Position numbers and translations under genes: made by a program
The notes under the pieces: generated by a model
Database searches by the model: none
The model's input: the letters and a program-made list of their open reading frames with translations, nothing else
Told to the model about the DNA's origin: nothing
Part shown: positions 1 through 1,427 of the stretch, piece by piece
How the letters are laid out: every line of letters begins with the position of its first letter
How positions within the stretch are numbered: position 1 is the stretch's first letter
NCBI RefSeq assembly: GCF_003334335.1
Contig: NZ_QOWQ01000107.1
DNA length: 1,427 bases
Strand: one strand, 5' to 3'
Origin: Escherichia coli
GTDB lineage: Bacteria > Pseudomonadota > Gammaproteobacteria > Enterobacterales > Enterobacteriaceae

Positions 1-131
1 TCTGCGCGAGTGTGCGGGGATAATCAAAAACGATACACACCGGGGTTTACCGCGTTAACGGAGCGTGGCGTTGTCCCCTCATGGTCGCTCGTCCGGTGCG
101 ATGGTGGAAGAAACTGGATTTTGTTGCAACT

Positions 132-144
132 GATAATCATTATC
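132..144. repeat. Perfect 6-bp-arm palindrome GATAAT-C-ATTATC just upstream of cosQ
   Basis: Seen in sequence: gataatcattatc reads as an inverted repeat around a central C. I recall the same motif at the equivalent place near the lambda right end. Its function is unknown to me. Confidence 0.4.
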
Positions 145-152
145 ATTTTCTC

Positions 153-159
153 GGGTCCT
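153..159 (+). other. cosQ-like element (GGGTCCT), needed in lambda to terminate packaging at the downstream cos
   Basis: Seen in sequence: GGGTCCT lies exactly 30 nt upstream of the predicted top-strand nick (182/183). Established knowledge (from memory): this is the same heptamer and spacing as lambda cosQ. Confidence 0.6.
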
Positions 160-182
160 TTCCGGCGATCCGGGCCGTTACG

Positions 183-194
183 GGGCGGCGACCT
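183..194 (+). other. cosN cohesive-end sequence GGGCGGCGACCT; predicted nicks between 182/183 (top strand) and 194/195 (bottom strand), giving 12-nt 5' overhangs
   Basis: Seen in sequence: exact 12-mer GGGCGGCGACCT, preceded by CCGTTACG and followed by CGCGG. Established knowledge: this is the lambda cohesive end, with the flanks as I recall them for the lambda right and left termini. Confidence 0.85.
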
Positions 195-231
195 CGCGGA
201 TTTTCACTATTTATGAAAATTTTCCGGGATC

Positions 232-243
232 CATGTCCGGTTT
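232..243 (-). repeat. R3-like putative small-subunit binding element (AAACCGGACATG on the minus strand)
   Basis: Seen in sequence: catgtccggttt is the exact reverse complement of the 12-mer at 319-330. It sits at offset 50-61 from the left end, close to lambda R3 as I recall it. Confidence 0.5.
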
Positions 244-252
244 CTCTGCAAG

Positions 253-285
253 TTAACCATATGAAAAATATAAAAACATGCTTTC
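253..285. promoter_or_regulatory. AT-rich, A-tract-containing spacer; candidate IHF-binding/bending site analogous to lambda I1
   Basis: Seen in sequence: ttaaccatatgaaaaatataaaaacatgctttc lies between the first and second repeat copies. The minus strand reads CATGTTTTTATATTTTTCAT, reminiscent of the lambda I1 segment as I recall it. I could not find a clean match to the IHF consensus WATCAANNNNTTR. Confidence 0.3.
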
Positions 286-288
286 CAT

Positions 289-300
289 GAACCGGACATG
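289..300 (+). repeat. R2-like putative small-subunit binding element (GAACCGGACATG, 11/12 match)
   Basis: Seen in sequence: the 11-mer AACCGGACATG (290-300) is identical to 320-330. Offset from the left end is 107-118. Confidence 0.5.
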
Positions 301-318
301 CGCAAAAAATAGACACTA

Positions 319-330
319 AAACCGGACATG
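319..330 (+). repeat. R1-like putative small-subunit binding element (AAACCGGACATG), with an adjacent partial inverted copy (ACCGGTTTTG, 331-340)
   Basis: Seen in sequence: aaaccggacatg, immediately followed by accggttttg, so AAAACCGG (318-325) and CCGGTTTT (332-339) form an 8-bp inverted repeat around ACATGA. Confidence 0.5.
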
Positions 331-368
331 ACCGGTTTTGTTGTGATTGTGAGGTGAGAGTTTTTGCG

Positions 369-377
369 AGGTGAGGA
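369..377 (+). promoter_or_regulatory. Shine-Dalgarno region for the small terminase gene (GAGGTGAGGA)
   Basis: Seen in sequence: purine-rich GAGG at 369-372, 5 nt upstream of the GTG at 378. An in-frame TGA at 372-374 closes the frame upstream, so GTG 378 is the first possible start. Confidence 0.55.
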
Positions 378-887
378 GTGGCTACGCAGACTGAAGTTGC
401 CAGGCATTTAAGTCTGACCGATCGCCAGCTTCGCAGATTGCAGAAATTGCCGGGTGCCCCGATATCGAATAAGCGAGGGCAACTGGATCTGGATGCCTGG
501 CGCGATTTTTACATATCGTATCTGAGAAGAAGTAAAAACGATGTGCCTGATGGCGATAGCGAAGACGACTATGAGGAGAAATTGCTTATTGCCAGATGGG
601 AACTGACAGCAGAACAGGCTGTTACACAGCAGTTAAAAAATGAGGTGTCAAAAGGAAAACTTATTGACACCGGGTTCTGTATTTTTGCCCTCAGCAAGCT
701 GGCAATGGCGTTATCCAGTACGCTTGATTCCATCCCTTTATCCATGCAGCGACAGTTTCCTGATTTAACACCGCGCCATCTTGACCATCTGAAAACCCTT
801 ATTGCGAAGGGGGCAAATCAGTGTGCGCGGGCGGGGGATAAATTACCGGATTTACTCGATGAATATATCAGAGCAACAACTGAATAA
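378..887 (+). CDS. nu1: Terminase small subunit (lambda Nu1 family), 169 aa, GTG start; N-terminal winged-HTH DNA-binding domain divergent from lambda, C-terminal large-subunit-interaction region conserved
   Basis: Complete ORF in the supplied track. Its C-terminal half (GFCIFALSKLAMALSSTLDSIPLSMQRQFPDLTPRHLDHLK...LPDLLDEYI) aligns by eye to lambda Nu1 as I recall it (AFCTFVLSRIAGEIASILDGLPLSVQRRFPELENRHVDFLK...IPGLLSEYI). It lies directly after cos and overlaps the gpA-like gene as in lambda. The N-terminus (EVARHLSLTDRQLRRL) fits an HTH pattern but differs in sequence from lambda. Confidence 0.9.
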   Translation: MATQTEVARHLSLTDRQLRRLQKLPGAPISNKRGQLDLDAWRDFYISYLRRSKNDVPDGDSEDDYEEKLLIARWELTAEQAVTQQLKNEVSKGKLIDTGFCIFALSKLAMALSSTLDSIPLSMQRQFPDLTPRHLDHLKTLIAKGANQCARAGDKLPDLLDEYIRATTE

Positions 888-1427
888 TATGATGAGTGCT
901 GTCACAACAGCATTACAGCCCCTGATAAGGGCATTGCCGGTGACGCCAGTTGAATGGGCTGATCAAAATTATTATCTGCCTAAAGAATCTTCATATGGTG
1001 AGGGAGAATGGAAAACGCTGCCGTTCCAGATCGCCATCATGAACAGCATGGGGAATGATCAGATCCGGACTGTTAATCTGATTAAATCTGCCCGTGTTGG
1101 CTATACAAAGATGTTGCTAGGAGTCGCCGGGTATTTTATTGAGCATAAATCCCGAAACAGTCTGCTTTTTCAGCCCACGGATTCTGCCGCTGAAGATTTT
1201 ATGAAGTCTCACGTGGAGGCGACGATTCGGGACGTGCCATGCCTGAAAGATCTTTCCCCGTGGCTGGGACGTAAACATCGTGACAATACTCTCACGCTGA
1301 AACGCTTTTCATCGGGGGTGGGCTTCTGGTGCCTGGGTGGTGCGGCAGCAAAAAACTACCGTGAAAAATCCGTGGACGTGGTCTGCTATGACGAACTTTC
1401 CTCGTTCGAGCCGGATGTCGAAAAAGA
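859..1427 (+). CDS. A: Terminase large subunit (lambda gpA family), N-terminal 189 codons; 3' end lies beyond the window
   Basis: My translation from ATG 859 (frame +2 relative to the small subunit gene) gives MNISEQQLNNMMSAVTTALQPLIRALPVTPVEWADQNYYLPKESSYGEGEWKTLPFQIAIMNSMGNDQIRTVNLIKSARVGYTKMLLGV..., open to the window end. This matches lambda gpA as I recall it (MNISNSQ...VEWADANYYLPKESAYQEGRWETLPFQRAIMNAMGSDYIREVNVVKSARVGYSKMLLGV), including Y46, K76 and K84 of the KSARVGY(S/T)K ATP-binding segment (nt 1084-1110). The ORF is absent from the supplied track, presumably because it has no stop codon in the window. Confidence 0.92.
   Translation, partial: MNISEQQLNNMMSAVTTALQPLIRALPVTPVEWADQNYYLPKESSYGEGEWKTLPFQIAIMNSMGNDQIRTVNLIKSARVGYTKMLLGVAGYFIEHKSRNSLLFQPTDSAAEDFMKSHVEATIRDVPCLKDLSPWLGRKHRDNTLTLKRFSSGVGFWCLGGAAAKNYREKSVDVVCYDELSSFEPDVEK

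Follow-up and report, generated by a model that had tools for sequence, protein, structure and literature searches.

The closest described counterparts of the element reported here are the Fur sites of nohA and nohB in Escherichia coli K-12, and reviews still count nohB among the Fur targets. Stojiljkovic et al. reportedly recovered the DLP12 nohB fragment in 1994, in a Fur titration assay with a multicopy plasmid. Chen et al. 2007 (PMC2189734, coordinates of U00096.2) list strong Fur clusters at 1634624 (nohA), with 22.3 bits, and at 579824 (nohB), with 25.3 bits and third place in their Table 4. The overlapping Fur sites of nohA are 6 bp apart, and a nohA oligonucleotide is gel-shifted by 150 nM purified Fur (PMC2189734). 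The same paper cites Vassinova and Kozyrev 2000 for the in vivo selection of a nohA Sau3A fragment that binds Fur. In addition, Fur binding has been mapped by ChIP-exo in nine strains (Gao et al. 2023, PMC10164565). The role of cosQ in packaging termination of lambda-like phages has been described independently (PMC4669245). The words lambda and prophage are absent from the text of Chen et al. (PMC2189734), and the palindrome treated below is unmentioned in the packaging literature on cosQ that was covered, namely Feiss papers such as PMC4669245. The Fur papers speak of nohA and nohB without lambda or cos, the packaging papers speak of cosQ without the palindrome, and in the papers covered the two literatures are unjoined. 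No statement was found in these papers that the nohA/nohB-type Fur box is lambda 48452-48466, or that a Fur box abuts cosQ or bounds the cos module on its left.

The window, that is, the whole stretch of DNA analysed, comprises 1427 bases from the cos region of a lambdoid prophage. Positions 100-235 have 100% identity to a prophage of E. coli 2015C-3121 (NZ_CP027340.1), and Escherichia phage PhiR12_1 has 98.7% identity to the window overall. The 2015C-3121 prophage has the order holin, lysozyme, lysis protein, a small hypothetical gene, a non-coding stretch of about 450 bp, terS, terL, head-tail joining protein, and portal, and all of these genes lie on one strand, save one small hypothetical gene within the lysis cassette. 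The genes upstream of the box in this prophage (lysis protein, hypothetical protein) are all on the plus strand and are followed by the non-coding DNA. The features of the window are listed below.

126-144, plus strand: second, overlapping match to the 19-bp Fur consensus GATAATGATAATCATTATC, 16/19
131-145, no strand: putative Fur box core TGATAATcATTATCA, perfect 7-1-7 inverted repeat
132-150, minus strand: best match to the 19-bp Fur consensus GATAATGATAATCATTATC, 17/19
146-152, plus strand: T-rich spacer TTTTCTC, from the Fur box to cosQ
153-159, plus strand: cosQ heptamer GGGTCCT, packaging termination signal
183-194, plus strand: cosN cohesive-end sequence GGGCGGCGACCT, equal to the 12-nt sticky end of lambda
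208-225, plus strand: TATTTATGAAAATTTTCC, equal to the lambda segment between cosN and cosB
232-330, plus strand: cosB-like region with three copies of CCGGACATG, inverted at 232-240 and direct at 292-300 and 322-330
378-887, plus strand: terS, terminase small subunit, 169 aa, GTG start
859-1427, plus strand: 5' part of terL, terminase large subunit, continuing beyond the window

The terS gene is labelled terminase small subunit by RefSeq in the 2015C-3121 prophage and Nu1 in PhiR12_1, and the DNA of the terL fragment shows 81.6% identity to gene 2 of phage 21. TerS and the TerL fragment had no match in NCBIfam, and their identity is taken from the RefSeq and GenBank annotation and the similarity to phage 21 gene 2. 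The records of phages 434 and 21 annotate cosQ at the equivalent relative position, and the right ends of lambda, 434, and 21 finish with GTTACG directly before the cohesive-end sequence GGGCGGCGACCT. By position only, the TATTTATGAAAATTTTCC segment at 208-225 corresponds to I2. This lambda-identical segment also contains a perfect 10-bp palindrome, GAAAATTTTC (215-224), whose half-sites resemble Fur hexamers at 5/6 positions in an arrangement unfit for a Fur box. The CCGGACATG repeats are presumed to be the TerS binding repeats for the packaging specificity of the prophage, by analogy with R3, R2, and R1 of lambda cosB (PMC4669245), and this specificity presumably differs from those of lambda, 21, and N15. 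The first repeat is inverted in the window, whereas the middle one is inverted in lambda. The last CCGGACATG copy sits in an inverted repeat with a 9-bp stem, forming a hairpin at 317-340. A search of the whole window for an IHF site gave zero matches to the strict consensus WATCARNNNNTTR.

The original prediction drew attention to a palindrome, GATAATcATTATC, and positions 132-144 do read GATAATCATTATC, a perfect 6-1-6 inverted repeat. One further pair matches, which extends it to the perfect 7-1-7 element TGATAATcATTATCA at 131-145, and pairs 9, 10, and 12 from the centre also match, giving 10-nt arms at 90%. Its placement upstream of cosQ was correctly given, but the distance, put at about 9 bp, measures 8 nt from the 6-1-6 repeat; the 7-1-7 element lies 7 nt 5' of cosQ and 37 nt 5' of the cohesive-end sequence. 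Perfect 6-1-6 palindromes occur 0.39 times per dinucleotide shuffle of the window, and perfect 7-1-7 palindromes 0.11 times, at least one of the latter being present in 10% of shuffles. Since 31% of shuffles hold at least one 6-1-6 palindrome, palindromy per se was ruled out as evidence. Matches to TGATAATnATTATCA with at most two mismatches are expected only 0.01 times per window. The element is notable through its specific sequence and its conservation, and the size of the palindrome is not rare. As a candidate RNA hairpin or terminator it was rejected: the minimum free energy is -2.2 kcal/mol for both strands, a value equalled or bettered by 157 and 107 of 200 shuffles. A terminator scan of the window did not report the palindrome, and an Rfam search returned no match for it.

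The 15-mer is an exact Fur-box core, matching at 15/15 positions the 7-1-7 sequence TGATAATnATTATCA, which contains the 6-1-6 sequence GATAATnATTATC, and it fits the ChIP-exo motif TGAnAATnATTcTCA of PMC10164565. The overlapping consensus matches at 132-150 and 126-144 would form the arrangement typical of Fur site clusters. E. coli K-12 has two copies of the element, in Qin and DLP12, each 6 nt from cosQ; the Qin copy is the identical 15-mer, and the DLP12 copy differs at the centre base only (T). The published cluster positions were converted to version 3 of the genome by adding 1976 for nohA, as derived from the coordinates of that gene, and 777, a known shift, for the region of DLP12. The converted positions, 1636600 for nohA and 580601 for nohB, are the exact centre bases of the Qin and DLP12 palindromes, and the predicted-site coordinate of the gel-shifted nohA oligonucleotide is the centre of the Qin 15-mer that is identical to the one in the window. 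The palindrome of the window is very probably a Fur-binding site. It is predicted to be a high-affinity operator for host Fur, the copy in the window by its identity to the published ones, an interpretation drawn from the sequence evidence and the published experiments on identical or equivalent copies. The suggestion in the original prediction that a protein-binding site, rather than chance, underlies the palindrome is supported, with host Fur as the protein on account of the consensus match and the published binding at nohA. Its remark that no role had been assigned proved wrong, because the identical K-12 sequence is already known as the published nohA/nohB Fur box (PMC2189734).

The conservation with the lambda right end that the original prediction mentioned was borne out by an identical 15-mer at lambda 48452-48466. 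The elements of five phages are as follows.

lambda, right end: element TGATAATCATTATCA, 6 nt before GGGTCCT
434, right end: element TGATAATTATTATCA, 6 nt before GGGTCCT
phi80: element TGATAATTATTATCA, 5 nt before GGGTCCT
21, right end: element TGATAATTATTCTCG, 5 nt before GGGTCCT
N15: element CGATAACTATTATCG, 5 nt before GGGTCCT

Left of the element, these phage groups have unrelated sequences. For a wider comparison, IMG/VR was scanned with the cosN string GTTACGGGGCGGCG, chosen because it avoids selecting on the element itself, and only sites with cosQ were kept. The scan gave 54 distinct cos left sides, and the element is present in 33 of them. Of these copies, 17 are perfect, and 6, 5, 4, and 1 have one, two, three, and four mismatches, respectively. 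The gap to cosQ is 4-7 nt in all 33, and the spacer among relatives is T-rich without exception. The element is found in at least 12 unrelated left-flank families. The information content is about 0.05-0.6 bits over most of the left flank, with values up to 1.4 bits for the five flank bases nearest the element, and 1.0-2.0 bits over the 15 columns of the element itself; high conservation is also seen in the cosQ-cosN spacer of these left sides. Among the complete E. coli genomes, 911 of 5426 have a match to window 100-235, and many of the E. coli prophage matches begin precisely where the element does, at window 131. The element is the left edge of a conserved cos module and travels with that module. 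The check across lambdoid right ends that had been proposed thus found the element in all five phages and in more than half of the cos left sides. Symmetric double changes were considered as evidence of structure and discarded, as only two occur among 23 variants.

In 1.13 Mb of phage contigs chosen by cosN only, 42 perfect copies adjoin cosQ and 2 lie elsewhere, with 0.003 expected from composition. The 2 others are likewise at cos sites, ones whose cosQ is a variant. Two IMG/VR loci, L053 and L102, combine a perfect Fur box with CGGTCCT and GGGTCAT, respectively, in the place of cosQ, and these variants could be sequencing errors, defective prophages, or tolerated variants. The Stx1 prophage Sp15 of strain Sakai (L131 1600-1680, minus strand) shares the left flank of the window, the Fur box with one mismatch, and cosQ. 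It diverges directly 3' of cosQ, to CCTGGTGGGGTGGGCCTGAACACGGGGCGGGCGGGCGCGG, which shows that the pair of Fur box and cosQ was kept where the cosN region was exchanged.

The element is missing from 21/54 cos left sides, and its association with the lambda-type cos is therefore strong but not obligatory. Two element-less types lie on contigs with two inverted cos sites around a TerS-like gene, and six are singletons. Downstream of two singletons, L105 and L095, lie TerS homologues, accompanied in L095 by a TerL homologue, and a third, L016, shows a weak partial match to TerS. One double arrangement is seen in IMG/VR L062 9700-10720, where two convergent lambda-type sites with cosQ and cosN surround a 180-aa gene; L042, L054, L058, L063, L064, L077, L084, L108, and L119 are likewise double-cos contigs. 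The convergent pairs are 530-890 bp apart, and the 180-aa product has 45-52% identity to residues 59-168 of the window TerS and is possibly an Rpp-like satellite protein. A strong GC hairpin with a T run abuts cosQ of one cos in these contigs, and the other cos appears to have a phage-21-like cosB. With such an arrangement, helpers of two different specificities might be able to package the DNA.

Published ChIP-exo peaks place Fur in vivo on a cosQ-adjacent box in one strain, CFT073, and probably in a second, Sakai. In strain CFT073, the iron-replete peak P53 (1424699-1424711) lies on TGATAATTATTCTCG at 1424694-1424708 (PMC10164565 data). This box, of the phage-21 type, precedes the gene for the terminase small subunit at a distance of 5 nt from cosQ, and it is bound by Fur in vivo in CFT073 despite its two mismatches. 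In Sakai, peak P90 (2918933-2918945 of NC_002695.1) falls in Stx1 prophage Sp15, between the lysis and terminase genes. The coordinates of the paper refer to NC_002695.1 and the sequence compared was NC_002695.2, so the shift was calibrated on known Fur sites. In version.2, TGATAACcATTATCA is followed by ttttgc and GGGTCCT, and the element occupies 2919057-2919071, which is +124 from P90. A shift of +119 to +125 brings P91 onto the stx1 operator, a classical one; at cirA, the peak meets the sole Fur motif of its intergenic region with +137, exbB needs about +105, hybO and Sp4 about 0, and fbaB is odd. Because these calibration points disagree, the assignment of P90 to the palindrome TGATAACcATTATCA is only probable.

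The MG1655 Fur ChIP-exo list contains no peak on the DLP12 or Qin boxes, and the BL21(DE3) list contains none on the lambda DE3 box at 768425-768439 (PMC10164565). Among the W3110 peaks with gene assignments, none is assigned to the genes flanking the DLP12 and Qin boxes (PMC10164565). Around the box, DLP12 and Qin differ at roughly every tenth base pair, and the loss of multi-mapping 31-nt reads is thus not obviously the cause of the missing peaks. As a separate observation on phage 21 (41842-42168; L004 112-438) and CFT073 (C_RS07335; L129 455-781), the late region has a gene for a TonB C-terminal-domain protein, which precedes the Fur box by 0.7-0.8 kb and is a second link of this phage region to iron uptake.

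Expression data of the same study were compared for the loss of Fur. In the CFT073 delta-fur strain, the genes of the terminase operon rise by +1.3 to +2.1 log2, and those of a separate transcription unit at the P53 peak by +2.3 to +2.9 log2; in Sakai delta-fur, ECs2962 rises by +1.6 log2 (PMC10164565 data). The CFT073 terminase-operon genes and Sakai ECs2962 are classed as members of the Fur regulon (PMC10164565). These increases are compatible with a local Fur effect and, equally, with general prophage derepression, and the ECs2962 increase could also be read-through from the derepressed, Fur-controlled stx1 promoter. In MG1655 delta-fur, nohA and nohD are unchanged (PMC10164565 data). Just left of the cos sites of DLP12 and Qin, W3110 delta-fur shows lower expression of ybcV (-3.7), ybcW (-5.3), ydfO (-2.0), and ynfO (-5.1 log2; Dataset 3), and borD drops about 2-fold in MG1655 and W3110 alike when Fur is lost. 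Fur acting positively or against silencing could account for these decreases, as could an indirect effect. A scan of window 1-420 found no sigma-70-like promoter on either strand, and a manual look for -35 and -10 candidates around the box found none that was convincing, so that classical promoter occlusion is inapplicable here. In the K-12 context, and there only, the positions tabulated by Grainger et al. (PMC1802558) imply a transcription start of nohA within the box.

The reading that we prefer is an iron-dependent brake on transcription into cos and terS-terL. Fur-Fe2+ would bind the box, probably as overlapping dimers whose footprint would reach cosQ, and the bound Fur would act as a brake or insulator on transcription that runs from the lysis region over cos into terS-terL. 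Leaky transcription in lysogens would be affected most; the brake would be lifted under iron starvation or when Fur is lost, and Q-modified late transcription would be expected to pass the box. The proposal builds on the location of the box in the gap of about 450 bp between lysis and terminase genes of the same strand, with no overlapping promoter. The step beyond binding is one that we infer with low confidence, and the proposal as a whole is best called possible and short of probable. Against it stand the boxes of DLP12, Qin, and lambda DE3 with no called peak, the unchanged nohA and nohD, and the lowered genes left of cos in W3110. We know of no demonstration of Fur as an elongation roadblock at a cosQ-adjacent box, and the tight adjacency to cosQ is left unexplained by a purely transcriptional role.

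An alternative that we consider unlikely is that Fur binding is real and serves no selected phage function, the box being a passenger in the cos module that would persist through its linkage to cosQ and cosN and through frequent recombination among lambdoid prophages. The absence of the box from 21 of the 54 left sides, including the L105 and L095 loci with TerS/TerL homologues, fits a passenger, and so does the high conservation of the neighbouring spacer between cosQ and cosN. Substitutions in that spacer reportedly caused no major packaging defect, according to the abstract of Wieczorek and Feiss from 2001. The K-12 copies, moreover, are without ChIP signal or expression effect, and the Keio screen for lambda host factors did not return fur as a hit. 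On the other hand, the box matches the host operator consensus perfectly and ranks among the strongest K-12 Fur clusters (PMC2189734), it recurs beside no fewer than 12 unrelated left flanks, conservation climbs sharply at its left edge, and even the degenerate phage-21-type box is bound in vivo, all of which speaks against a mere passenger.

It is quite unlikely, in our estimate, that the box is an accessory subsite of cos, at which Fur or the AT-rich sequence slows or positions the terminase motor for recognition of cosQ and cosN, in parallel with host IHF at I1 in packaging initiation. The constant partner of the box is cosQ, always at 4-7 nt and on the side where the motor arrives, while the left neighbours vary (a minus-strand DUF3950 gene, a plus-strand gp59, lysis genes), and the box forms the left border of cos homology. 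Judged from the typical size of Fur footprints, bound Fur would reach cosQ. Wieczorek, Didion and Feiss are said to have found in 2002 that portal mutations suppress cosQ mutations, and such suppression suggests that translocation speed matters at cosQ. However, the variable spacing leaves the helical phase unfixed, phage-type cos sites with terminase genes and without the box exist, and satellite-like cos sites without it carry the GC hairpin and T run in the same place. Saturation mutagenesis reportedly limits cosQ to 7 bp only. A subsite would be expected at every cos with the same cosQ and cosN, and more than a third of the left sides lack the box. The packaging-termination role implied by the original prediction found no support, given the terminase-linked lambda-like cos sites and the satellite-like ones that lack the element and the silence of the packaging papers covered. 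The variable spacing, the natural cos sites without a box, and the absence of fur from the Keio hits argue against an essential packaging role. A related reading, which we hold to be very doubtful, makes Fur a conserved accessory component of the lambda-type cos, much as IHF is at cosB, that couples virion production, or the protection of prophage cos from terminase, to the iron status of the cell; Fur just ahead of cosQ would then influence packaging termination or access to cos.

A further possibility is a Fur sponge, in which the clusters of at least a hundred replicating genomes would titrate Fur and derepress host iron uptake, in support of iron-dependent dNTP synthesis and in the manner of multicopy boxes in the Fur titration assay. 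Such an effect would need no local promoter, and nohB was reportedly recovered by Fur titration. With one cluster per genome and several thousand Fur molecules per cell, only partial titration would result, and a sponge would have no need to adjoin cosQ. The idea is highly unlikely, even with a site as unusually strong as 22-25 bits (PMC2189734). Hardly credible is an incidental likeness to a Fur box in a site for a phage protein, a DNA cruciform, an RNA hairpin, or a weak terminator: an inverted repeat is followed by a T run, satellite-like cos sites have a true GC hairpin with a T run there, and two symmetric double changes keep the palindrome (N15 positions 1 and 15, L085 positions 7 and 9), but conservation is at the sequence level with almost no covariation (position 15 varies between A and G with T kept at position 1), and the perfect Fur consensus together with the published Fur binding makes coincidence unlikely.

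The link between Fur box and cosQ spans lambda, 434, phi80, 21, N15, Stx1 phages, and many prophages, and the palindrome beside the lambda termination signal is among the strongest Fur operators catalogued in E. coli (PMC2189734). If Fur affects terminase expression or cos recognition, iron would tune the output of lambda-like phages, including Stx1 phages. If the box is without effect, it would be a clear case of a strong and conserved transcription-factor site lacking a regulatory target.

The box can be set beside several known systems. Like the window, nohA (Qin) and nohB/nohD (DLP12) have the box upstream of cosQ, cosN, cosB, and a Nu1-type gene. In contrast, the TerS protein and the cosB repeats of the window differ from those of the nohA and nohB loci, and the left flanks are unrelated, with a divergent DUF3950 gene (ylcI/ynfO) in K-12 and lambda and the end of a same-strand lysis cassette in the window. 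Lambda (48364-48377), 434, DLP12, and Qin (L003 1063-1076, also L002, L127, and L128) have TTGATgcagATCAA, a perfect FNR site that the window lacks, some 90 bp left of the box. FNR ChIP-chip peaks and a gel shift with little promoter activity were reported at that site by Grainger et al. (PMC1802558), and the lambda right end, with the FNR site and the Fur box, thus has strong sites for two host global regulators.

The classical Fur operators of Sakai Sp15 stx1, cirA, and exbB have the same consensus and the same architecture of overlapping hexamers as the box, and iron-replete ChIP-exo occupancy, seen at such operators, is also seen at the equivalent copy of the box in CFT073 and probably at that in Sakai. 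They overlap and repress the -35 and -10 elements of promoters, whereas the box of the window overlaps no promoter-like site. The IHF site I1 of lambda cosB is, like the box, a site for a host DNA-binding protein within cos, and it has been demonstrated to bend DNA for TerS binding to R3 and R2 at initiation (PMC4669245). The Fur box differs from I1 in lying on the opposite side of cosN, in being missing from some cos sites, and in that any packaging role is putative. Finally, cosQ, once called the R4 region, adjoins the palindrome and is co-conserved with it, and the GenBank record of phi80 has a 55-bp feature, 'cosQ; aka R4 region', that includes the palindrome. The cosQ proper is the asymmetric GGGTCCT that is needed for termination (PMC4669245), whereas the palindrome lies outside cosQ and is not universal.
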